From IMG/VR virus record IMGVR_UViG_3300047547_000492: 20,000 bases of DNA; one strand, written 5' to 3'. Shown here piece by piece: positions 1 to 10,085 of this stretch. How positions within the stretch are numbered: the first letter of the stretch is position 1; every line of letters begins with the position of its first letter. Made by a program: the position numbers and the translations under genes. The stretch comes from an uncultured virus (IMG/VR IMGVR_UViG_3300047547_000492) (lineage: Duplodnaviria > Heunggongvirae > Uroviricota > Caudoviricetes). Below the pieces are notes generated by a model. It was not told where the DNA came from. It made no database searches and saw only the letters and a list, made by a program, of their open reading frames with translations.

Positions 1-1
1 T

Positions 2-1027
2 GGTCAGCGTCCCGTCGCCGTTGTTCACCAGGGACGTCGGCGCCATGCCGTCGTAGCCCTCGTCGGTGCTGTGACCGTCGTCGATCAGCTGAGGGATGAC
101 GACGCCGGGCTTGCCCATCGGATTCGCCTGAGCGCCCATCGCATTGAGCAGGTTGCTCCCGAGGCTGTTCACGATGCTCGGGTGGGCGTTGCTCGGCGAG
201 TCTCCGGTCGCGGTCAGCTCGGTCAGCCAGCGCGACCCGATGCTGTCGGTGATGCCCCACGCGAGGCCGGGATGCGATCGGTAGGACTTGTCGAGCTGCT
301 GGATCATGCCGGCCCAGATGCCGTTGTGGTACGAGAACCCGGCGTCGCGACCCTGGTAGTTCGCCGAGTTGGCCCGGATCTTGGTGAGCCACCCGTCGAC
401 AGCCGAGCGCTGTATGTTCAGGTCGGTGTCGGTCGGCAGGGCGGTCGAACCATTGATCCCGAGGTCGGCCAGCACGTTGCCGATGCCGGTGGCGATGCCC
501 CGACGCACCAGCTGGTTCACGTCCTGGCCGGCGCGCTTGGCCGCCTTGATGGCGGTCAGGCGGATGCCGAACGCCCCCGAGATGGTCCGGGTCTGGTACT
601 GGCTGGCGTCGACATCCGGCTTGTGGATCGGGATGCCGCTGCGGACGCCCTCGGTGGGCATCGGATGCATCCGGAAGCTCCGATCATCCCACGTGTCGAG
701 GTACCCGGACTGCTCCGTGACCGGCGCGAACGTGGTGAAACGCAGCCAGTCGGACTCCTTCCGGATCCGCGCGAAGATCCCGAGCTGCGCCTCGGGGTTG
801 AGAGCCGTCCCGGCGGGCTCCGAGTCAGCCTCGAGGTAGCCCGATCCCCTGGTGGAGACCGACACGCCGCCGTCGAGGCCAGCGGACCTCACGGTGCGCT
901 GCGGGGTGGCCGGGGACCGGTTCTGCTCGACCCGGACCTCCATCACCTGGTTCGACCGCCCGGTCGCCGGGGTTCCGGCGACCAGGCCCTGCACGGCCTT
1001 GAGGGCCTGTTCGACGATCGGATCCAT
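2..1027 (-). CDS. Major capsid protein, HK97 fold, XkdG-like (3' end runs off the window)
   Basis: Not in the ORF track because it has no stop in the window. Hand translation from ATG at 1027 is open for 342 codons: MDPIVEQALKAVQG...ALNPEAQLGIFARIRKESDWL...LGINGSTALPTDTDLNIQRSAVDGWLTKIR...MIQQLDKSYRS...NPMGKPGVVIPQL. These blocks resemble XkdG-type capsids (LxPEQ..F, xNGDT....DG, P.KY, FGVP). It lies downstream of protease and scaffold genes. Confidence 0.85.
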   Translation of the reverse strand, partial: MDPIVEQALKAVQGLVAGTPATGRSNQVMEVRVEQNRSPATPQRTVRSAGLDGGVSVSTRGSGYLEADSEPAGTALNPEAQLGIFARIRKESDWLRFTTFAPVTEQSGYLDTWDDRSFRMHPMPTEGVRSGIPIHKPDVDASQYQTRTISGAFGIRLTAIKAAKRAGQDVNQLVRRGIATGIGNVLADLGINGSTALPTDTDLNIQRSAVDGWLTKIRANSANYQGRDAGFSYHNGIWAGMIQQLDKSYRSHPGLAWGITDSIGSRWLTELTATGDSPSNAHPSIVNSLGSNLLNAMGAQANPMGKPGVVIPQLIDDGHSTDEGYDGMAPTSLVNNGDGTLT

Positions 1028-1088
1028 CTGGAATCCCCGAGGGTTGGGCTGTTGCGTCGTAGGGTTGAAGGACTGGACGCGGCTTGGG

Positions 1089-2324
1089 TCAGCCGCGGGC
1101 GCCGACCATCCGGTTGAGCGCGGGCATCTCGACCTCCAGCGGGTCGCCGTCGTCCTCCTCGGGGGCGAACCCGAAGGCTCCGGCGGGATCGCCCTGCGGG
1201 GTCGGCGAGGAGTAGAACGCCTTCATGGTCTGGACCATCGCCTCGGCGACGGACGGGGCGACCATCTCCTTGATGGCGTTCGCGAGGTCTCCCGAGGGGT
1301 TGGCCTTGATCTCGGCGGCGATGGTCTTGGCGAAGGCCGCGCGCGCCGCCGACTTCATGGCGGAGTTGACCTTCGGCGTACCAGAGATCGAAGCCGCGGC
1401 GTCCACGTCGACGCTCGAGACCGCGCTCGCGATCATGCCGAGGATGGCCTCTCCGCCCTGAAAGTCGCGGAGCTGACGGATGAACTCCTGGGGGTCGAAC
1501 TGCTCGACGCCGGTGTCTCCCCAGGCGAACTTCTTCGCGGCTTCGGGGAACTTGGCGGCCGCATCCTTCCGGGCCTGGTCGACGACCTCGAGGAACCCGA
1601 CGGGATCCTCCTTCGCCAGGGCAGCGAGCATGACGATGGTGAGCACTGGAGCCTCCTGAGGTGTTGACGACGACTTGGCGGCGACCCCGACGACGCCGTC
1701 GCGGATCTCAGACGCCCACTGAGCGAACAGACAGCCGACCTCTGAGAAGATGCCGAGGATGGTCTCCGTCGATGATCCCTCGCCTCCAGCGGCGAGCACG
1801 GACACCACGGAGTCCCTGAGGTGCACCTTGGCCTGGCCGAGCGACCTGACGAAGGCATTCCGATCGATCTGCGTCTCGGTATTCGCCTCGAGGCGCATGT
1901 GAGGTTGGAGGTCGACGCGACGTTGGGACGCGACCTCCGCCATCTTGGCGTGTCCGACCGCCACCGCGAGGGCCGCCACGCGCGCGGCCGCCTGGTTGGT
2001 GCAGGCGATCACCCGAGCGGCCCTGTCCGACGCGGCGATCGGACGGTCGAGCACGTCGATGAGGACGGTCTCCCACGCGTCGAGGGTCTCGTCGATGAAC
2101 CCCACCAGCTCGTCCGCCGAGGCACCGGCCCGTTGGATCGCCTGGGGTCCCGGCGGATCCCTGAGGACGTCACCAGGCGGTGAGGCGGACTTCCACGACG
2201 ACGCGGGCCGGTCGTTCGCGCCCCAGTCGACGATCGAGAGGTGACGCGGTATCGGATTGGTGAGCAGCACCACCTCCGCCGTCCCGTCCGGCCCGACGTT
2301 CAGCTGACGACGGCTCCTCCTCAC
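1089..2324 (-). CDS. Scaffold-like head protein with an N-terminal prohead-protease motif (HLSIVDWGAN)
   Basis: Probable start is GTG at 2324, overlapping the upstream stop (GTGA) with GAGGAGG just upstream. The N-terminal LTNPIPRHLSIVDWGANDRPASSWKS resembles the XkdF motif ITHVSYVDKAAN..FFxKS. The rest is Ala-rich and helical, and the gene lies between protease and capsid. Confidence 0.65.
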   Translation of the reverse strand: MRRSRRQLNVGPDGTAEVVLLTNPIPRHLSIVDWGANDRPASSWKSASPPGDVLRDPPGPQAIQRAGASADELVGFIDETLDAWETVLIDVLDRPIAASDRAARVIACTNQAAARVAALAVAVGHAKMAEVASQRRVDLQPHMRLEANTETQIDRNAFVRSLGQAKVHLRDSVVSVLAAGGEGSSTETILGIFSEVGCLFAQWASEIRDGVVGVAAKSSSTPQEAPVLTIVMLAALAKEDPVGFLEVVDQARKDAAAKFPEAAKKFAWGDTGVEQFDPQEFIRQLRDFQGGEAILGMIASAVSSVDVDAAASISGTPKVNSAMKSAARAAFAKTIAAEIKANPSGDLANAIKEMVAPSVAEAMVQTMKAFYSSPTPQGDPAGAFGFAPEEDDGDPLEVEMPALNRMVGARG

Positions 2325-3295
2325 GTTGCCTCCTCGAGGTGACCACGAAGGTGAGCCTCCGCCCCGGGCCTGAGCTCCGGGGGAATCGAGTCGAGCCTGG
2401 ACATCGCCTCGAGGACACCCGCCCTGGAGGTCATCATGGCGCCGGACCTGACTCTGTGGTGTGGGAGCCAAGCGTCTGCGCCCCTGCAGGCGGCGAACGC
2501 CTCTCTCCCGAGGATCGAACCCGATGCCGAACCTGCGCGAACGCCGACCGACTCGAGGGACCTCACGGCGTCATCCCGATCCCAAGGGGAGTGGTCCGTG
2601 GGCCACCTCGACGCCGCCCTGGTGAGGGTCGGAGACTCGAACAGGGCGGCTGCCAGGCCGGCCCACGGGCCGTCGGACACGCCAGACACCTCGATGGTGT
2701 CGGCATCCACGGCGATGGCCAGAGGCATGCCGTGCGACCTGACCGCGACGAACAGGCCTGGAGAGACCTCCCTGACGGCCTGGACTCCCTCATAGCCGCA
2801 TGAGGCGATCTCCGCAGCCCACTCCGAGAGGGTGGAGGGGAGCGCCACGGGCCGTGGCGCTCCGCGGCCCGTGGCCACCGGCAACCTGACGACCTTGTTG
2901 AAGGTCAGAGCGTCGAGGCTGACGCTGTTGAGCTTCCCGCTCCTGAGGCCGTCCATGGCCTCCTTGGACTGATGGACGTCTAGACGAGCCGCGTGGCTGT
3001 TGATCGGGAACGCCGGCGATGCGATCTCTGGCGCGTTGAAGAACGACTCGACGGCCCTGACATTTCGACCGATCCCGTCGTGCTGGATGTCCACCGACGG
3101 TCCAAACGCCAGCCACCTGTGGGCGAACAGCTCCACGTCGGTGGGCAGCATCCCGGTGCCGTGCAGATCCAGGTCCTCCGCCCTGACTGCGCCCGGGTCG
3201 AGAGCCGCATAGTTGACGAACCACACGAGGCCGCGGACTAGGTCCGACCTCATCTGGTCCATCATCATGGCGATCTTCACCGAGCTCGCTTCCAT
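2321..3295 (-). CDS. XkdF-like prohead serine protease (Peptidase S78_2-like) with a C-terminal accessory domain
   Basis: Motifs DLHGTGM..TDVELFAHRWL, VDIQHDG, VESF and LRSGKLNSVSL match the XkdF pattern (DAHGDFM..EIEKAAH.F, IDKQHD, VVESY, IKKGEITGYSM). The C-terminal WD..AV..L / LPHH / GV.EA / HL.GHL segment resembles a domain seen in phage head-maturation proteins. Confidence 0.8.
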   Translation of the reverse strand: MEASSVKIAMMMDQMRSDLVRGLVWFVNYAALDPGAVRAEDLDLHGTGMLPTDVELFAHRWLAFGPSVDIQHDGIGRNVRAVESFFNAPEIASPAFPINSHAARLDVHQSKEAMDGLRSGKLNSVSLDALTFNKVVRLPVATGRGAPRPVALPSTLSEWAAEIASCGYEGVQAVREVSPGLFVAVRSHGMPLAIAVDADTIEVSGVSDGPWAGLAAALFESPTLTRAASRWPTDHSPWDRDDAVRSLESVGVRAGSASGSILGREAFAACRGADAWLPHHRVRSGAMMTSRAGVLEAMSRLDSIPPELRPGAEAHLRGHLEEAT

Positions 3296-3365
3296 TTCTT
3301 TGAATTAACAGCGCCACGTCGACTCAGCCACGGGAGAGTTGGCCCGACGGGTTCGACGGACGTCG

Positions 3366-3791
3366 TCAGAGACAGTCCGCCGTGACGTCATCCCAGTCCG
3401 CGAGGGTCGCGACCCCGTCCGGCGTGGCCTCCCAAACGGAGCGCCGCCTCTGGTTGTCACCGATGATCTTGCCCTCGGAGAACAGGGCCACCAGGCCCAC
3501 GTCGGACATGGCCTGGAGCATCCTCCACAGCCTCGTCTCGGCCTGAGGGGTCACGGCGAGCAGGCCGTCGGCCGTGGAGAAGTCCTCGATGGCGTCCAGC
3601 GCGCCACGCCGGGCCAGCTCGACGCACGATTTGATGGACAGTGGGCACGCACGACGATTGGGAGTCGCCGTCAGGATCCTCAGCATCTCAGCCCATCTGT
3701 GGTGTTCCGCCTTGGTCTTCACCAACCTGACCGACGGCGAAACCATCGGTCCGTGCATCCACAGGCCGGCGAACCCCCTCGACGTGTCCAC
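3366..3791 (-). CDS. Winged-helix (PadR-like) DNA-binding protein
   Basis: C-terminal RLWRMLQAMSDVGLV...RRRSVWEATPDG resembles the PadR-type recognition helix and wing (LY..L..L...GLV...RR.Y.LT..G). Starts 3 nt after the upstream stop. Confidence 0.55.
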   Translation of the reverse strand: MDTSRGFAGLWMHGPMVSPSVRLVKTKAEHHRWAEMLRILTATPNRRACPLSIKSCVELARRGALDAIEDFSTADGLLAVTPQAETRLWRMLQAMSDVGLVALFSEGKIIGDNQRRRSVWEATPDGVATLADWDDVTADCL

Positions 3792-3794
3792 GGC

Positions 3795-4073
3795 TCACCT
3801 CACGAGCGGCGTCTGGTACACCCAGTGCAGCGTGGACGGCGACCCGCTCGACTGCACGAAGTGGACGGCCTGCTTCTCGCACGGGCCGTCCATCGACAAT
3901 CCCTCGCCCGAGGCGATGGGGAACCCGGTGGCCGCGTCGGCCTCCGACGTCCCCATCTTCCACGCGATGGACTCCTCCATGCGGAACAGGTGACCCTTGG
4001 AGTTGGCCGGCAGGATCACGGTCGCGTCGACCCCGCTGACCATGGCGATCTTGATGTGGCATAACCTGAACAC
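3795..4073 (-). CDS. Small hypothetical beta-rich protein (possible virion accessory)
   Basis: 3' part of ORF 3795..4226. Start uncertain (GTG 4073 or ATG 4043). Coherent sequence (GFPIASGEGLSMD) that fills the gap in the minus-strand operon. Confidence 0.55.
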   Translation of the reverse strand: MFRLCHIKIAMVSGVDATVILPANSKGHLFRMEESIAWKMGTSEADAATGFPIASGEGLSMDGPCEKQAVHFVQSSGSPSTLHWVYQTPLVR

Positions 4074-4123
4074 TCCCCCAGGGTATCGACCCCGCGTGAC
4101 ACCGGCCACTCGGGGTCGGGTCG

Positions 4124-4762
4124 TCAACGGTCGATCAGCCTCGGCTCCAGCGACACCCGGGCCGCCTCGACGACCATCCTGATGGTCGACGGATGGGCCT
4201 TGGAGCGACGGTCGTCGATGTCGCACGGCGCGCCCGCTGACACGACGCGCTTCTTGACCGTCAGGTCCGGCGCGTCGACCTTGAGCACCTCCACCGTCAC
4301 GCCGTTCAGGTCGTACGCGGGGGTTACCCGCCTGAACGTCCCCCGAGGGAAGAGGTACGACTCGCCAGCGGACACGTGCACGACGACCTCGACGGGCGTC
4401 ACGGTCCCAGGCAGGCGGACGTTGACCTGGCCCCTGTCAGACGGCTCGACCTCCCACACGCTGAATTGGCCGTTGGGCATCGGCCAGGCCGACACCTCGA
4501 TGTTGACCAGCTGGCCCGCGATGACGGTCGACGAGAATCCGAAGCGATGATCCCTGATCTCGCGCGTGACGAACGGTTCCACCTGGAGCGACCGATGCCA
4601 CACCTTGACCCTCGGCCGATCGTTCGGCGACAGTCCGACCACGAACCCCCTCGGGTCGTGGCGCCACTCGACGCTGGGGTCGTCGAAGGCGAACACGGCA
4701 TCCACGACGACGCGTCGAACCGCCGTGGCGGTGGCTGGACGTCGCTTCGTGACGGGCCTCAC
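4124..4762 (-). CDS. Cupin-like (cysteine-dioxygenase-like fold) protein with a degenerate metal site
   Basis: RVKVWH...IRDHRFGFSSTVIAGQLVN...AGESYLFPRGTFRRV follows the cupin pattern RLHVW...IHDH.W.F.S.VL.G.L.N...G..Y......FH.V. Overlaps the upstream gene by 4 nt. Confidence 0.65.
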   Translation of the reverse strand: MRPVTKRRPATATAVRRVVVDAVFAFDDPSVEWRHDPRGFVVGLSPNDRPRVKVWHRSLQVEPFVTREIRDHRFGFSSTVIAGQLVNIEVSAWPMPNGQFSVWEVEPSDRGQVNVRLPGTVTPVEVVVHVSAGESYLFPRGTFRRVTPAYDLNGVTVEVLKVDAPDLTVKKRVVSAGAPCDIDDRRSKAHPSTIRMVVEAARVSLEPRLIDR

Positions 4763-5499
4763 GGATGTCCGCTCAGGTCAGTCGGGCCGTAGGACTCGGG
4801 GTCGTTCATGCACGCCACCAGGATGGACTTGTACTTCTTGATGTATGCCCTCCACGGCATACGTTCGGCCGGCGCGTGGACCATGACGGCGTGGCGCTGC
4901 TCCGGCGTGGGGTCGGTCGGCGGGACGAACTCCGGCATCCAGCTCGGCCTCGGTCTCTCCGGCCGGTCCCAGCCTAGTCTGCCGAGGAGACCGGTCGGCA
5001 TCTGACCGCATCTGAGGCCGGCCATCTTGGCCAGGACCATGCGCCTGGCCATCTCGAGCTCCGCCTTGTGGTACTGGGCCCTGTAGGTAGACACCGGATC
5101 GCCTGGGATCTTGCATCGGTTGTGGGTCAGCTGGGGGATCTCCAGCGTAGACCCGGGCTCGAGGGGGGCGAGCCCGGTCGGAGCGTTGTCAAGCGCCCAC
5201 CACATCAGCCGTTCGGACGGGTAGACCTTCATGAATCTGAACCTCCTCTCGACCACGGTCGCCCTGCAGTGATCCACCATCCACTCCCACGCCTCTGAGG
5301 AGGACAGGACCCACTGAACCAGCGTAGATCCGGCCCACGCGGCGTTGATCGGACACCCCTCAGCCCCGGCGTGGGCCGCGGCATTCGTCAGCACGAGGCT
5401 CAACACCATGCCCTGGCGCCAGACGTGCATGTCGGCCAGGTACTTGGCTGACGTCCTGTGGTCATCATCGAGCATCCAAAGATCCAACCCGTCGCTCAT
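4759..5499 (-). CDS. Divergent pyrimidine-dimer DNA glycosylase-like (Pyr_excise) protein
   Basis: LDLWMLDDDHRTSAKYLADMHV, QWVLSSSEAWEWM, ERRFRFMKVYPS, GDPVSTYRAQY and W.RP..P.WM match the phage family MNIF.LD.DP..SA....DKHV / W...S..NY.WL / EY..RYGK.H / DPV.AYR.YY. A GGAG RBS precedes the ATG. Confidence 0.7.
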   Translation of the reverse strand: MSDGLDLWMLDDDHRTSAKYLADMHVWRQGMVLSLVLTNAAAHAGAEGCPINAAWAGSTLVQWVLSSSEAWEWMVDHCRATVVERRFRFMKVYPSERLMWWALDNAPTGLAPLEPGSTLEIPQLTHNRCKIPGDPVSTYRAQYHKAELEMARRMVLAKMAGLRCGQMPTGLLGRLGWDRPERPRPSWMPEFVPPTDPTPEQRHAVMVHAPAERMPWRAYIKKYKSILVACMNDPESYGPTDLSGHP

Positions 5500-5591
5500 C
5501 TTGTGTCTCCGGGCGCCTGACCACCTGAGGCCAGACGTTCAACACAGGATAACCCGGCCGGCGCGTCGGTGACACAGACCGCATGATCGTG

Positions 5592-5767
5592 GGGCCCGTT
5601 TGAGCGCCGATCAGCCGAGTCTGGGCCCGTTTGAGCGCCGATCAGCCGAGTCTGGGCCCGTTTGAGCGCCGATCAGCCGAGTCTGGGCCCGTTTGAGCGC
5701 CGATCAGCCGAGTCTGGGCCCGTTTGAGCGCCGATCAGCCGAGTCTGGGCCCGTTTGAGCGCCGATC
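5592..5767. repeat. Perfect 31-bp tandem repeat, 5 full copies plus a 21-bp partial
   Basis: Unit GGGCCCGTTTGAGCGCCGATCAGCCGAGTCT starts at 5592, 5623, 5654, 5685, 5716 and 5747 (partial). No spacers. Confidence 0.97.
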
Positions 5768-5831
5768 GTCAAAAAATTTTGAAAAAGTGGGTCGAAGCGC
5801 GCGCCGATCGTCAAAAAATTTTGAAAAAGTG
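5759..5831. repeat. 31-bp A/T-tract direct repeat, two copies, 42-bp period
   Basis: GCGCCGATCGTCAAAAAATTTTGAAAAAGTG at 5759-5789 and 5801-5831. Confidence 0.95.
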
Positions 5832-5872
5832 CGCTCATTTCATCGGATATTCCCCTCTGACAAGGAGATCCG

Positions 5873-5980
5873 CAGGATCTTCGATAATCTGAGCAATGCG
5901 TAATTCGGGGATCCTCAGGATCTTCGATAATCTGAGCAATGCGTAATTCGGGGATCCTCAGGATCTTCGATAATCTGAGC
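5873..5980. repeat. 43-bp tandem repeat, 2.5 copies
   Basis: CAGGATCTTCGATAATCTGAGCAATGCGTAATTCGGGGATCCT at 5873 and 5916, partial at 5959-5980. Confidence 0.95.
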
Positions 5981-6469
5981 GGGTGGTTTGGGGCGAGAGG
6001 CGGGGGGCCACGGTCACGGAGCCGAGCCCCCCGGCACTGCGTTCTCTGAAATCCCGATACCGATTCGTCAGCGGCACACTAGGTGCCTGGTCCGCGACCC
6101 CCTTAACCGAGGGGTCCATCCGACCGAACGCCGAATTTACGTGGTACGCTTAATTGCGTGGCGTAAACTAGCGTCGAGTTACACGGGGTGGACAGGTGGG
6201 GTTGGGCAGTAGCGACCTTGTATCACAACCTAATCGCTGACGACGATATCGTGCGCATAGTGGGCCAACGAAGGGGTACGAGCTTCCATCGCGCGGAGCG
6301 ATCAGGCGACGACTACCGGACCGTTGGACAACCCACGACTGACCATGGGTAGACCGCCTGACAAGCGTCTATCCAATGGTTCAGCATGCCGCGCCTACGC
6401 TACGGCCCTTAGGAACATCGGCTCACCTCGTAGGCGCGGCATCCTCAACCATTGGATAAGGAGTGCATC

Positions 6470-6613
6470 ATGTTCGCCACCGTCTTCATCACCTGGGCCG
6501 CCGGCGTGGCCCTCGTCCCCGCAGCCCTGACCTACCGGAGCCGTAAGGCTGTCGAGCAGAAGGACCTCCAGACGAACTTCGATCGAGTCATGAACCAGAC
6601 CGCCAACAAGTGA
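6470..6613 (+). CDS. Small membrane-anchored hypothetical protein (47 aa)
   Basis: Hand translation gives MFATVFITWAAGVALVPAALTYRSRKAVEQKDLQTNFDRVMNQTANK. AAGGAG RBS and hydrophobic N-terminus. Below the ORF-track cutoff. Confidence 0.7.
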   Translation: MFATVFITWAAGVALVPAALTYRSRKAVEQKDLQTNFDRVMNQTANK

Positions 6614-6614
6614 G

Positions 6615-6863
6615 GTGAGCGTGAGAGGGTACATCGGTAAGATCCTAAAGAACGGCGAGGAGGAGTCGTTCAAAGTTATCGACTTCACCGCGGATGAGGT
6701 CAACGGCACCACGGAGGTGTTCGTAAGAGCGGTGTCCCACGACAGAGCCGTGTGGCTGTGGTGGGACACCTTCGAGGGCGACTTCCGCCTCTGCGATGCA
6801 GACGGAGAGGTCGTACCAACCGATCGGGGTGGCTTCTCCATCCGAGATACCGAGAGGGGTTAG
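6615..6863 (+). CDS. Hypothetical phage protein (82 aa)
   Basis: ORF track; abuts the previous gene. Its TAG stop lies inside RNA motif copy 1. Confidence 0.7.
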   Translation: MSVRGYIGKILKNGEEESFKVIDFTADEVNGTTEVFVRAVSHDRAVWLWWDTFEGDFRLCDADGEVVPTDRGGFSIRDTERG

Positions 6864-6895
6864 GCTCGGTGCGGCGGCCTCCGGGCCGCGTCCCC
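6849..6895 (+). ncRNA. Pistol-like ribozyme candidate, copy 1 (P1-less)
   Basis: ACCGAG-AGGGG-TTAGG-CTCGGT-GCG-GCGGCC(TCCG)GGCCGC-GT-CCCC. Predicted cut G6890/U6891; ATG at 6913. Confidence 0.75.
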
Positions 6896-6912
6896 ACAGC
6901 GAGAGGTGTTTC

Positions 6913-7089
6913 ATGCGCGTTGTCATCCGCCACAGGATCTCCAACGGCGTCCACGACGGCTTCGAGGCCCTTCTGATCGACGGATGGGTCTCGAAACACT
7001 CCATCAGCGGCCCATCGCTCGAGAGGGTCGTCACGCAGGTCTCAACGATGTGGTCGGGGTACCCCGTGTACAACGACCTGCTCGGGTAG
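6913..7089 (+). CDS. Hypothetical phage protein (58 aa)
   Basis: GAGAGGTG RBS, then ATG 6913 (MRVVIRHRISNG...), in frame with ORF 6796..7089. Confidence 0.7.
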   Translation: MRVVIRHRISNGVHDGFEALLIDGWVSKHSISGPSLERVVTQVSTMWSGYPVYNDLLG

Positions 7090-7156
7090 TTACACGCGCG
7101 GGCCCGAGGGTTACACGCGGTGCCCGCGGATCAGCGATGCAGAATATGATCTAGGA

Positions 7157-7210
7157 GCCGGGAGGGGTTAGGCCCGGTGCGGCTCGAGGACCAGTCCTCG
7201 AAGCGTCCCC
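7157..7210 (+). ncRNA. Pistol-like ribozyme candidate, copy 2 (P1-less)
   Basis: GCCGGG-AGGGG-TTAGG-CCCGGT-GCG-GCTCGAGGA(CCAG)TCCTCGAAGC-GT-CCCC. Predicted cut G7205/U7206; ATG at 7233. Confidence 0.75.
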
Positions 7211-7232
7211 AACAACACGACAGGAGTCCACA

Positions 7233-7799
7233 ATGGCCAAGACCATCGACACGATCGCCACCGCCGCCCTCTTCGCCTCGTTCAAGCCCGAGGCGCTCGC
7301 GGAGGAGCTCGCGGCCCGCAAGCTGAAGCCCGTCGAGGACGTCGGCACCGCGAGCATGCTCCTCGCGAGCGGATGTAGGAGCCTCGACGACGTCACCACG
7401 ACCGTCATCAACCTCTCGCACGGCCAGGTGTCCGGCAAGGACATGACCGACATGCTGGCGAAGTGCTTCCCGAACCATCAGATCGGGGACAGGCACGGTC
7501 CGCACTACCTCAGCCTCGTGCGGACCGGCGACTCGGGCAGCAAGATCGAGTGCCGCTTCCGCGTGGCCAAGCGTCAGCGGGTCGCCAAGACCGAGCCTGA
7601 GGCGAAGGTCGTCGAGGTCGAGCGGACCTACGACCTCAGCTCGCTGGACCCGAAGCACCTCGACAGGATCGTGAAGGCCGTCAAGGGGACGCCCCTCGAG
7701 AACCTGATCGCCAAGTGCCTCGAGACCAAGGTCGAGCCGAAGCTCGAGCCCGAGGTCAAGGTTCATGACCAGGAGGAAGCCGCTCCGGCCGCCAAGTAG
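7233..7799 (+). CDS. Hypothetical protein, RHGPxYLS family paralog 1
   Basis: AGGAG RBS. Contains MTDMLAKCFPNHQIGDRHGPHYLSLVRTG, shared with the genes at 12766-13098 and 19397->20000. Confidence 0.85.
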   Translation: MAKTIDTIATAALFASFKPEALAEELAARKLKPVEDVGTASMLLASGCRSLDDVTTTVINLSHGQVSGKDMTDMLAKCFPNHQIGDRHGPHYLSLVRTGDSGSKIECRFRVAKRQRVAKTEPEAKVVEVERTYDLSSLDPKHLDRIVKAVKGTPLENLIAKCLETKVEPKLEPEVKVHDQEEAAPAAK

Positions 7800-7809
7800 C
7801 CGAGTGACG

Positions 7810-7857
7810 ACCGGGAGGGGTTAGGCCCGGTGCGGCGGTCCGACGGACCGCGTCCCC
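7810..7857 (+). ncRNA. Pistol-like ribozyme candidate, copy 3 (P1-less)
   Basis: ACCGGG-AGGGG-TTAGG-CCCGGT-GCG-GCGGTCC(GAC)GGACCGC-GT-CCCC. Predicted cut G7852/U7853; ATG at 7874. Confidence 0.75.
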
Positions 7858-7873
7858 AATCGAGAGGTGTTCA

Positions 7874-8323
7874 ATGAACGATGATGCGGTCCACCCGTTG
7901 ATCGCTCTGGCCGTCCGTCTCATGGTCCAGGACGAGTCACAACGAGTAGAATGCGGTCTGATCAACGCTCCGTCGGAGTGCGTCGCGATCATCTCGAAGG
8001 CCAACGCCATGGAGATGGCCGAGGCCGTGGCGACGAGCGACGAAGACTTCCAGAAGCTCGCCAAACTCGCCGGCGACGAGACGATCTCCGCCCTGATCGA
8101 CGCGGAGAGAGCGCGCAGTCCGTTCCTGGACGATGCCGACACGTTCGACATGGACGAGCCCTGGCCCTCGGACCTCGCGGATCCCGAGCCGCTCTGGTCG
8201 ATGCTCACGACCTGGGTGCACCACTGCGAGCTGGTCAAGGAGCTCGACGACTCGAGGATGGCCAATGCTGACCGCGGACCGAGGTTCGCCGAGTACATGA
8301 AGAGCGCCCCACTCGTCGACTGA
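7874..8323 (+). CDS. Acidic hypothetical phage protein (149 aa)
   Basis: GAGAGGTG RBS; high-GC3 codon usage; Asp/Glu-rich. Confidence 0.8.
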   Translation: MNDDAVHPLIALAVRLMVQDESQRVECGLINAPSECVAIISKANAMEMAEAVATSDEDFQKLAKLAGDETISALIDAERARSPFLDDADTFDMDEPWPSDLADPEPLWSMLTTWVHHCELVKELDDSRMANADRGPRFAEYMKSAPLVD

Positions 8324-8348
8324 ACCGCCAACCCTAGGAGACACGCCG

Positions 8349-8522
8349 ATGGCCGTCGGAGAGAGCAAGAACGCAGGATTCGCGAAGGAGTGTGCGTCGG
8401 GATCCCGCTCCCGACGGTTCGGCAAGAGAGCGAGGACGAGGTCGTTCCGCAGGGAGACGATCCCCGACGACGAGCTCGAATGCGCGGCGTTCGACGACGT
8501 CACGACGACCGGGAGGGGTTAG
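8349..8522 (+). CDS. Small hypothetical protein (57 aa)
   Basis: AGGAG RBS, then MAVGESKNAGFAKECASGSRSRRFGKRARTRSFRRETIPDDELECAAFDDVTTTGRG. The TAG stop lies inside RNA motif copy 4. Below the ORF-track cutoff. Confidence 0.6.
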   Translation: MAVGESKNAGFAKECASGSRSRRFGKRARTRSFRRETIPDDELECAAFDDVTTTGRG

Positions 8523-8555
8523 GCCCGGTGCGGCTCCCGTCGAGGGAGCGTCCCC
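8508..8555 (+). ncRNA. Pistol-like ribozyme candidate, copy 4 (P1-less)
   Basis: ACCGGG-AGGGG-TTAGG-CCCGGT-GCG-GCTCCC(GTCGA)GGGAGC-GT-CCCC. Predicted cut G8550/U8551; ATG at 8574. Confidence 0.75.
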
Positions 8556-8573
8556 AACAACGAGAGGTGTTCA

Positions 8574-8948
8574 ATGCCCAAGGTGGACCTCAACGAGATC
8601 GCCAGGGTCTGCTACGAGAACGATCAGGGGGTCGCCTACGCCTACGGCGATCACGCCTGGCCGGCGGGATGCCCGACGGGCACCGACGCGCTCAAGCTCA
8701 TCGACGAGAAGGTGCGGTTCATGGGGTTCGAGCCGGACCACCTCAGGTCGGACGTGTGGAATGCGAAGGAACACTGCCTCCGTCTGATGTCGTATCCGAG
8801 GCCCGCGGTCAAGGTGCCCGACGGCAAGACCTTCGAGGAATGGGCCGATGACGTCGTCTCGGGGAAGGCCGGCGTGTCCGACGGGTGTCTGGCAAGCAGC
8901 CTCGACGAGTTCGTCAAGCTGAACGAGCGACTCAAACGTTCCGAGTGA
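8574..8948 (+). CDS. Hypothetical phage protein (124 aa)
   Basis: GAGAGGTG RBS; typical codon usage; stop abuts RNA motif copy 5. Confidence 0.8.
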   Translation: MPKVDLNEIARVCYENDQGVAYAYGDHAWPAGCPTGTDALKLIDEKVRFMGFEPDHLRSDVWNAKEHCLRLMSYPRPAVKVPDGKTFEEWADDVVSGKAGVSDGCLASSLDEFVKLNERLKRSE

Positions 8949-8994
8949 CTCGGAGGGGTTAGGCCGAGTGCGGCGGTCGAGAGGCCGCGTCCCC
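8948..8994 (+). ncRNA. Pistol-like ribozyme candidate, copy 5 (P1-less)
   Basis: ACTCGG-AGGGG-TTAGG-CCGAGT-GCG-GCGGTC(GAGA)GGCCGC-GT-CCCC. GNRA tetraloop and a U-G wobble. Predicted cut G8989/U8990; ATG at 9013. Confidence 0.75.
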
Positions 8995-9012
8995 AACAAC
9001 GAGAGGTGTCAA

Positions 9013-9366
9013 ATGTCGAGTGTGAAGTCGGCCGTTCAGGCCGCGATCGATCATCTGCGTGGCCGCGGCGTCGGGATCCCCGAAGACATGATCGATGACG
9101 CCGTCAACGTGGCCGAGGAGGTCGAGTCCGACGCAAACGAGGACGCCTGGGACGCCTGGGATCCCGACGAAGACCCGATGTACGCGGGCGATGGAACGTG
9201 GTTCGCTCAGGAGGACTCGGCCCTCCGCGCCTCCGGACCGGGCAACCCCCGGAACCTGCCCTGCCCGACCTGCCGCGAGCCCAACCGCCTGACCCCGGCC
9301 GACCGCGCCAGGGGCTACCAGTGCGACAGCTGCGCGGACAAGGTCGAGCGCGGGTGGATGGAATGA
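9013..9366 (+). CDS. Small protein with a C-terminal CxxC..CxxC zinc finger
   Basis: ATG 9013 after the GAGAGGTG RBS; NPRNLPCPTC...GYQCDSCAD. Confidence 0.8.
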   Translation: MSSVKSAVQAAIDHLRGRGVGIPEDMIDDAVNVAEEVESDANEDAWDAWDPDEDPMYAGDGTWFAQEDSALRASGPGNPRNLPCPTCREPNRLTPADRARGYQCDSCADKVERGWME

Positions 9367-10085
9367 GCCCCGAGACGAAACAGTGGGTCCGGGACGTGGC
9401 CTACGCAGCGTGCTCGGACCTCGAGAGGATGGACAAGGGCGTCGCGTTCGGGCGCACGTCCTGGAGCGTCGCCATCAACACCCGATGGCCGGCCGATGCG
9501 CCCACCAAGTTCGTGGAGCGCCAACAGATTGTGTTCGACACCCTCAACGAGCTGTACGCTGAGAGCGCGTTCGTCACGTTCCAGGACGGCACCGTGATGA
9601 CGAAATTCGCCCTGAGTCGGATCCCCCGGGTCCCGCGCCTCAACTCCAGGCGCGGTCAGGCCGTCCGACTCGTCGCCTGGCTGATGCACCACGGCGGGCC
9701 GATGGCCCGGCACGAGGTCGTGCGCGCCGCGCTCAGGCGAGGGGCGCACCTCGGGTCCTCCAGTCGCCCCTCGCACGCGTGGTTGCTGTCGTGGTCCGGC
9801 GGCCTGAAGGGTGACGGGAGGCTGTGGGTCGGGAAGCGCATCCAGACCATCCGGCACGCCGACGGGACGTGCCGGGTGCGGTTCGGCTACCAGCTGTTCT
9901 TCCCCGGACCAAAGATCGAGCTGGCACTGAACGACGGGTTCGTTCCCGACGATCGAGACCACGCCCAGCTCGAGAAACTCATCGTCGACAACGCTCACCT
10001 GCTCGAGTCGAAGCTCGGACAGCTGAGCGTCGGCACGGACTGGCGTCCCAACGAGACGCTCCCGGAGGACCACCATGCTCTCTGA
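9363..10085 (+). CDS. Hypothetical protein with a putative winged-helix-like domain (paralog of the next gene)
   Basis: ATGA overlap with the upstream stop; GPMARHEVV..A...GAHLGSSSRPSHAWLLSWSGGLKG..RLW. Confidence 0.75.
   Translation: MSPETKQWVRDVAYAACSDLERMDKGVAFGRTSWSVAINTRWPADAPTKFVERQQIVFDTLNELYAESAFVTFQDGTVMTKFALSRIPRVPRLNSRRGQAVRLVAWLMHHGGPMARHEVVRAALRRGAHLGSSSRPSHAWLLSWSGGLKGDGRLWVGKRIQTIRHADGTCRVRFGYQLFFPGPKIELALNDGFVPDDRDHAQLEKLIVDNAHLLESKLGQLSVGTDWRPNETLPEDHHAL

Follow-up and report, generated by a model that had tools for sequence, protein, structure and literature searches.

We describe a short RNA motif that recurs five times in a 20-kb stretch of DNA from an uncultured virus (IMG/VR record IMGVR_UViG_3300047547_000492; the whole stretch is called the window below, and motif coordinates are given on its plus strand). 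The five plus-strand copies, 47–54 bases each, share the layout N6-A-GGGG-UUAGG-N6'-GCG-hairpin-GU-CCCC and lie at the boundaries of a block of small open reading frames (ORFs). The copies are probably a natural variant of the pistol ribozyme that lacks the P1 hairpin and cuts a polycistronic phage mRNA between the G and the U of its GU junction. An earlier note on this DNA, drawn up from the letters alone, had proposed this interpretation; judged from the sequence it is supported, as all of its parts that are open to such analysis held. What the sequence shows is the design, its likeness to the pistol core, the covariation of its three helices, the use of one strand and the place at gene boundaries; that the RNA is catalytic, where it cuts and what becomes of the messages we infer.

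The copies were located by inspection of the sequence and with a covariance model built from the motif (R1), which was run over both strands of the window with filters off. Both placed them on the plus strand at the claimed positions (Table 1). R1 scored the five copies at 55.7–70.9 bits and the next best place at only 11.7 bits, thus the window contains five copies and no more. The ten-base word AGGGGTTAGG also occurs exactly five times in the 20-kb window, on the plus strand only. N6 and N6' are fully complementary in all five copies, as had been claimed, and the hairpin (P3) differs from copy to copy yet is always paired and always followed by GU-CCCC. The five G|U steps put forward as cut sites are correctly placed in the sequence. 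The base 5' of N6 in the window copies is t, a, g, g and g, so the first G of GCG is not sequestered by a seventh pair. When the DNA contigs of four sequencing runs were aligned to the stretch, no variant letters were found in the copies; these contigs break at the repeats. Chance is excluded as an explanation of the design, because 75 distinct copies elsewhere have the identical design together with compensating changes.

Table 1. Coordinates, composition and scores of the motif copies, the leaders that follow them and the surrounding ORF block in the window (P3 is given as 5' strand-loop-3' strand).
Feature	Position	Strand	Description	Rfam Pistol	R1 (bits)	Predicted cut
Block of seven small ORFs	6615..9366	+	6615-6863, 6913-7089, 7233-7799, 7874-8323, 8349-8522, 8574-8948, 9013-9366			
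Copy 1	6849..6895	+	N6 ACCGAG, A, P2 GGGG, UUAGG, N6' CUCGGU, GCG, P3 GCGGCC-UCCG-GGCCGC, GU, P2' CCCC	21.2 bits (model 23-68)	70.9	between G6890 and U6891
Leader after copy 1	6896..6915	+	GAGAGG ribosome-binding site, ATG 6913			
Copy 2	7157..7210	+	N6 GCCGGG / N6' CCCGGU, first pair G.U; P3 long, bulged	18.1 bits	55.7	between G7205 and U7206
Leader after copy 2	7211..7235	+	begins AACAACACGACAGGAG; ATG 7233 (ORF 7233-7799)			
Copy 3	7810..7857	+	N6 ACCGGG / N6' CCCGGU; P3 GCGGUCC-GAC-GGACCGC	22.1 bits	69.6	between G7852 and U7853
Leader after copy 3	7858..7876	+	GAGAGG, ATG 7874			
Copy 4	8508..8555	+	N6 ACCGGG / N6' CCCGGU; P3 GCUCCC-GUCGA-GGGAGC	24.2 bits, E 0.12	67.2	between G8550 and U8551
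Leader after copy 4	8556..8576	+	begins AACAACGAGAGG; ATG 8574			
Copy 5	8948..8994	+	N6 ACUCGG / N6' CCGAGU; P3 GCGGUC-GAGA-GGCCGC including a U.G pair	17.5 bits	68.0	between G8989 and U8990
Leader after copy 5	8995..9015	+	begins AACAACGAGAGG; ATG 9013			

We compared the copies with the Rfam Pistol model, RF02679, which has 68 positions and a gathering cut-off of 34.5 bits. At curated cut-offs Rfam reported no match in the window, in agreement with the expectation that a standard pistol model could miss these copies. In E-value mode over 6700–9100, RF02679 matched all five copies in part (scores in Table 1), with E-values from 0.12 to 4, over model positions 23–68 of 68 and on the plus strand only. 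The other Rfam reports from this region were three single low-scoring matches to unrelated families. In the alignment, A-GGGG corresponds to the A and P2 of the model, UUAGG to UUAgG, N6' to the pseudoknot strand, GCG to GCG, the hairpin to P3, GU to the junction and CCCC to P2'. All upper-case core letters of positions 23–68 were matched apart from those of the pseudoknot strand, and the claimed pistol core is thus present in five of five copies, from position 23 of the model to its end. Relatives with a different P2 and P3 scored 30.4, 29.7, 26.0 and 25.8 bits over the same positions. The 'AG' said to be invariant before P2 is not so in the family: each window copy has A directly ahead of P2, but A, U and G all occur at this place among the relatives.

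Canonical pistols from the same viral collection, in contrast, matched RF02679 over positions 1–68 (six of six, 35.0–68.9 bits). In these six, the loop of the P1 hairpin (positions 1–16) pairs with the pseudoknot strand, and the linker AUAAAuA occupies positions 17–23. Positions 1–22 were unmatched in every copy, both in the window and among the relatives. The partner of the pseudoknot strand is the six bases directly upstream, with a single base between N6 and P2 (two in one relative, L158). N6 itself is bordered by coding sequence or by a stop codon, and the window offers no space for P1. As only one base lies between N6 and P2, P1 and the linker have no counterpart, which agrees with the claim that the P1 hairpin and the AAA linker are absent. 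Among the features of pistol membership, the copies have the P2 helix, the UUA-purine-G loop, GCG, the six-pair pseudoknot, and P3 with the two-base junction; they lack the P1 hairpin with its A-rich linker and an Rfam score at the gathering cut-off. On sequence grounds we regard the motif as a putative pistol variant that shares the core and departs from the class in these two features. In 135,584 bases around ten related arrays, RF02679 gave no match at its gathering cut-off, and a search for other known ribozymes at Rfam cut-offs reported only a tRNA. A hammerhead identity was rejected: the hammerhead core letters are absent and there was no Rfam hammerhead match.

Relatives of the motif were gathered by pattern scans and model searches, and true copies were told from chance matches by the pairing of N6 with N6'. 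R1 gave 100 matches, 75 of them distinct, in the window, IMG/VR records, one contig of a metagenome-assembled genome (MAG) and metagenome contigs. The design was found in about 28 IMG/VR records and in 43 metagenome stretches, and a 9-kb contig binned with a Crocinitomicaceae MAG contains two true copies. The first two viral pattern scans yielded mostly chance matches, with 25 of 30 loci in one of them lacking the pairing, and chance also accounted for 11 of 72 unique pattern matches overall in a further set. Six of eight loci from the genome collection (Leucobacter, Methylobacterium, Dehalococcoidia, Cytophagia and two Thermoplasmatota contigs) also lacked pairing and were rejected as chance. 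Arrays are present in several complete phage records, with five copies (G002), four (G003 and G017) or three (G004, G013, G015 and G022), and the copies lie on one strand in each of the 12 multi-copy records. Among GenBank phages, megablast with 6500–9500 found no match, and a sensitive blastn search with copy 5 found one 18-base chance match only. In relatives of lower G+C content (L218, L219, L220, L222, L224 and many metagenome loci) we observed a second conserved hairpin after P2', a palindrome resembling GACAC(A/T)GTGTC. A further hairpin, with GUGAGAC in its loop region (CGCAGGCGTGAGACCCTGC and variants), often stands between this one and the next gene; the window copies have neither of these extra 3' hairpins.

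We then examined covariation in an alignment of the 75 distinct copies, which was fitted to the pseudoknot and P3 and not to P2. Standard pairs made up 99.5% of 1192 pair cells, and both sides changed in 14 of 16 pairs. The N6/N6' pseudoknot was 100% paired, with changes on both sides in four of its six pairs. P2 was also 100% paired and changed on both sides in all four pairs, though it is absent from the structure of the model. The outer four pairs of P3, an element of 14–34 nucleotides (nt), were 99.7% paired, and all four changed on both sides. The observed covariation score was reached by none of 500 shuffles, a count that is not to be read as a probability, and sliding the 3' partners by 1–3 columns lowered pairing to 41–59%. 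Thus all three helices covary. A G.U pair stands first in the pseudoknot in 41 of 75 copies, and P3 is capped by a UNCG or GNRA tetraloop in 43 of 74. These G.U pairs and loops show that the plus-strand RNA is the selected form; the use of a single strand per record agrees with this.

Among the 74 full-length distinct copies (45–65 nt, median 47), UUAGG was found in 74, GCG in 74 and GU in 73, with all three together in 73. P2 occurs as GGGG/CCCC, GGGA/UCCC, GGGU/ACCC, GUGG/CCAC, GUCC/GGAC and AGGG/CCCU, plus GGCA/UGCC. Because most relatives came from patterns that fix GGGG and CCCC, two scans were run with P2 free on both sides. Of the 26 rows that they returned, 14 had a P2 other than GGGG (GGGA, GGCA, GGGU, GUGG or GUCC), and in 13 of these 14 GU was followed by the exact complement. 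A further scan, in which UUAGG, GCG and the whole 3' half were left free, gave eight matches; seven had the full core and the eighth had none of it.

The copies occupy a regular place between genes. The longest-ORF rule was applied to 74 copies, a crude measure that is made noisier by GTG and TTG starts and by the 300-nt flanks. By this rule, the upstream stop ends within −2 to +1 of the first N6 base in 45 copies, lies inside the motif in 17 and lies further upstream in 12. In ten of the 17 the stop is the TAG of UUAGG, and this is also the case in the window, where the longest ORF upstream of copy 1 (6615–6863) and the ORF ahead of copy 4 (8349–8522) both terminate in this way. Copy 5 overlaps the TGA stop of ORF 8574–8948 by one base, the final A of the stop being also the first base of N6. 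The next plausible start lies 1–76 nt after P2' (median 24). Even so, a clear order emerges: a stop codon, the motif, a short leader and then a start codon. In the window a copy stands at five of the six boundaries of the seven-ORF block, the boundary 8323|8349 being without one, and the predicted leaders of 21–27 nt to the five ATGs were confirmed. The same GAGAGG ribosome-binding site is present in the leaders of four of five copies; GAGAGGTGTNNNATG occurs exactly four times in the window, each time directly after copy 1, 3, 4 or 5. We also observed that leaders are A/C-rich, often with AACAACGA just ahead of the ribosome-binding site (8556–8567, 8995–9006 and 7211–7222; also L199, L193 and L196).

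How could such an element act? We propose that the plus-strand RNA would fold as the catalytic half of a pistol, in which a 4-bp P2 and a variable P3 flank UUAGG, GCG and the two-base GU junction, and the strand between UUAGG and GCG would form a 6-bp pseudoknot with the partner directly upstream. The RNA would then cut itself between the G and the U of the junction. The P3 hairpin and a 2',3'-cyclic phosphate would terminate the upstream message, and the downstream message would begin with a 5'-OH and a leader of 21–27 nt carrying the ribosome-binding site. In this way a long phage transcript would be turned into single-gene messages without a protein nuclease, and the new ends may alter stability or translation. 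The pistol papers (PMC6154101, PMC11300833, PMC4604425) assign the role of general base to the first G of GCG, place the loop purine and G near a metal ion, and locate the G|U cut site in a junction of strictly two bases. The constant unpaired letters of our motif are the very letters to which the literature assigns pistol catalysis. According to PMC11300833, the canonical fold has a coaxial stack of P1, pseudoknot and P3, with P2 alongside the pseudoknot and the linker engaged with P1 in an A-minor triple. P1 and the linker would thus form an excursion whose ends are close together, setting out from the 3' end of the pseudoknot strand and coming back close by, where P2 begins. Their loss is sterically plausible, and so is a one-base bridge from the pseudoknot strand to P2.

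Several observations weigh against this proposal. The copies lack 22 of the 68 positions of RF02679, about one third, among them the conserved AUAAA linker. All scores are below the 34.5-bit cut-off; the window reaches 24.2 bits at best, and one relative reaches 30.4 bits. A near-consensus canonical pistol trimmed to the span of the copies scored 42.7 bits, and therefore the window copies are weaker core matches than a near-consensus pistol. In the canonical ribozyme, mutations that disrupt P1 cause a substantial loss of activity, according to Harris 2015 (PMC4604425). Such a disruption is not the same as a clean deletion, yet it warns that P1 matters. A ribosome that halts on the adjoining stop codon would break the pairing of the pseudoknot strand, which could hinder or gate cleavage. 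Moreover, most relatives were found with patterns fixing GGGG, TTAGG, GCG and GTCCCC, and R1 was trained on such copies. Because of this ascertainment bias, the constancy of the core rests mainly on the scans with a free core or a free P2 and on whole records searched with the model. The relatives are largely related freshwater phages from similar waters and are not independent, so the counts overstate the number of independent events. Nested-fold energies were ordinary for G+C-rich DNA (z −0.48 to +0.89) and did not separate the copies from shuffles, and the minimum-energy folds of copies 1, 2 and 5 differ from the proposed fold, from a program that cannot model pseudoknots. All six runs listed for 6600–9100 are DNA metagenomes, and none is an RNA run. 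Finally, three copies deviate (L036, G018/L039 and L183). In L036 (IMGVR_UViG_3300030052_000010), GCG leads straight to GU-GGGG, with P2 UCCC and no P3; the G018 copy (L039/L116) has a long branched P3 and then CUG-UUUC in place of GU-UCCC, so that its weak P2' is not preceded by GU. N6/N6' pairing is perfect in both, and they may be either decayed copies or further variants.

The third deviating copy has a different RNA in the P3 slot. In L183/L216 (G021:C1, about 6927–7036, minus strand) the gap begins N6-U-GGGA-UUAGG-N6'-GCG, and the place of P3 is taken by a twister-like RNA, which matched RF02684 (type P5) over model positions 1–58 at 33.6 bits (E 2e-4), below the curated cut-off of 37.6. 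The conserved stretches GCAGAGGG, UAAUGC and GGUCCCAAG of this RNA were all matched. After the long insert the junction reads AC-UCCC, whose UCCC could still pair with GGGA. A larger search under tighter filtering did not bring back the twister-like match, which concerns this locus and none of the window copies. This locus is possibly a pistol/twister hybrid or a replacement in the same gene-boundary slot, and we count the presence of a twister-like RNA in that slot in favour of a self-cleaving motif.

We asked whether the same observations could be explained without self-cleavage. The copies could be folded intercistronic RNAs that share the shape of a pistol and serve for recognition or stabilisation, either as a site for a host or phage ribonuclease, like the RNase III sites of T7 early RNA, or as a protective structure at 3' or 5' ends. 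Placement at gene boundaries and stable hairpins suit such a structure equally well, and it would account for scores below the Rfam cut-off and for the lack of P1, which is important in canonical pistols. It leaves unexplained, however, why UUAGG, G-C-G and an exact two-base GU, the letters of pistol catalysis, are constant and why a 4-bp pseudoknotted P2 shows compensating changes, and we consider it unlikely. Another view is that of a translation-control leader, whose pseudoknot gates the loading of ribosomes on the next gene or uncouples that gene from the previous one; the start-associated repeats of some actinobacteriophages offer a comparison. The copies do lie shortly before start codons, and in four of five window copies the repeat unit continues through the shared GAGAGG to the ATG. 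Among the relatives, though, the motif is rigid while the leaders differ widely in sequence and the starts lie at very different distances; the fixed neighbour of the motif is the upstream stop codon and not the start, and the pistol core is left without an explanation. As the sole function of the motif, translation control therefore seems to us quite improbable; it is compatible with cleavage and not opposed to it.

The motif might also act at the level of DNA, as the operator of a phage regulator or as a small mobile palindromic element with an accidental likeness to pistol. Read as DNA, too, N6/N6' and P3 form inverted repeats, and the window copies are very alike. Against this, the G.U pairs (the first pseudoknot pair in 41 of 75 copies, and more in P3) would be C-A mismatches on the other strand, the copies of all 12 multi-copy records share one strand, P3 hairpins carry RNA tetraloops, and the helices drift in sequence while their pairing is kept. 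In addition, a scan of 5400–9400 found no sigma-70-like promoter and no terminator-like site. This explanation is highly improbable. Going beyond the P1-less, self-cutting pistol variant that we prefer, one may picture a fully active ribozyme of about 47 nt that serves as a portable punctuation cassette for operons and whose cutting is gated by translation of the upstream cistron. As the pseudoknot strand starts at or overlaps the upstream stop, a finishing ribosome would have to unwind the ribozyme, and the separation and stability of the messages would thereby be tied to translation of the neighbouring gene. We see only a small chance that this extended scheme applies in full; if it did, the RNA would be among the smallest natural self-cleaving RNAs.

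Bases 1–5749 of the window are identical to the end of another IMG/VR virus record, G001, which belongs to the same genome, stops at window base 5749 and contains no motif copy. The remainder of G001 encodes a large terminase, a tape-measure protein and a tail protein, together with a ribonucleotide reductase, an NAD-dependent DNA ligase and an exonuclease. From these genes the genome is that of a tailed phage. The G+C content of two G001 pieces is 59% and 61%, and CheckV put the completeness of the 43-kb record at 40%. None of the seven ORFs of the block matched PHROGs, and none scored above the cut-off in Pfam; to call the operon 'early' is a reasonable guess. The block is situated downstream of a repeat-rich non-coding region. 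This region has two perfect or near-perfect tandem arrays in non-coding DNA, a 31-bp unit repeated 5.7 times (5592–5767) and a 43-bp unit repeated 2.7 times (5867–5980), with an A/T-rich stretch, repeated twice, between them (about 5770–5840). G001 ends within the first array. The arrays (5592–5980) could be an iteron-type origin or a regulatory region. Then follow about 470 G+C-rich bases (6000–6470) with several hairpins, no convincing ORF and no Rfam match, and the first small gene after them has its ATG at 6470, preceded by an AAGGAG site. The 67-nt gap before copy 2 is the sole block boundary with an extra spacer. In this gap GTTACACGCG is directly repeated, 21 bases apart (7090–7130). 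Possible roles are those of a binding site and of an internal promoter region; no sigma-70-like match was found at the repeat.

Pistol ribozymes have been known since 2015. To our knowledge, their natural task is still open, and P1 has so far been treated as a fixed part of the class. In the literature that we searched, which left most subscription journals outside, we found no published pistol without P1 and no pistol arrays at gene boundaries, and Rfam 15 has no family for the motif. If the copies do cut, the pistol catalytic unit would be only the half made of P2, loop, pseudoknot, GCG, P3 and GU, with consequences for our understanding of the pistol fold and for the building of small RNA tools. 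A whole branch of the pistol class would then have been missed by searches with the standard model. Cutting copies would also give a pistol-type RNA a concrete and testable job, the protein-free division of a phage operon transcript into single-gene messages, a job suggested by the regular placement from stop codon to ribosome site and by the presence of up to five copies in successive gaps. According to PMC6765202, such a role had until now only been suggested for hammerhead and twister ribozymes.

Finally, we compared the motif with known systems. With the pistol ribozyme (RF02679; PMC4604425, PMC6154101) it shares the order of the parts from P2 on and the association with phages, and also the six-pair pseudoknot as given in PMC6154101 and PMC11300833. 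Unlike pistol, it has neither P1 nor the AUAAA linker, with loss of the A-minor contact that involves P1, and a free strand immediately 5' of P2 serves as the partner in the pseudoknot. In addition, the copies score 17.5–30.4 bits, below the cut-off, and form arrays at gene boundaries in freshwater phages with a G+C content of 59–61% and lower, whereas the pistols in the papers come mainly from Firmicutes. The pseudoknot-containing hammerhead (Zhan et al. 2024, PMC11300833) has, according to that paper, the overall helix connectivity of pistol, which our motif shares from P2 on, and a six-pair pseudoknot, as here; our motif lacks the hammerhead core letters, however, and has no counterpart of the extra stem-loop of that hammerhead. 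The RNase III sites of the T7 early genes are likewise structured elements at phage cistron boundaries, and cutting would in both cases give separate messages with hairpin 3' ends. The T7 sites depend on a host protein enzyme and are without a conserved catalytic core, while for our motif the enzyme is proposed to be the RNA itself. For bacterial and phage hammerhead and twister ribozymes, processing of polycistronic transcripts has also been proposed, a suggestion that still needs work according to PMC6765202. Our motif belongs to another ribozyme class, and the evidence for its role is positional and of unusual regularity, successive gene gaps holding up to five copies.

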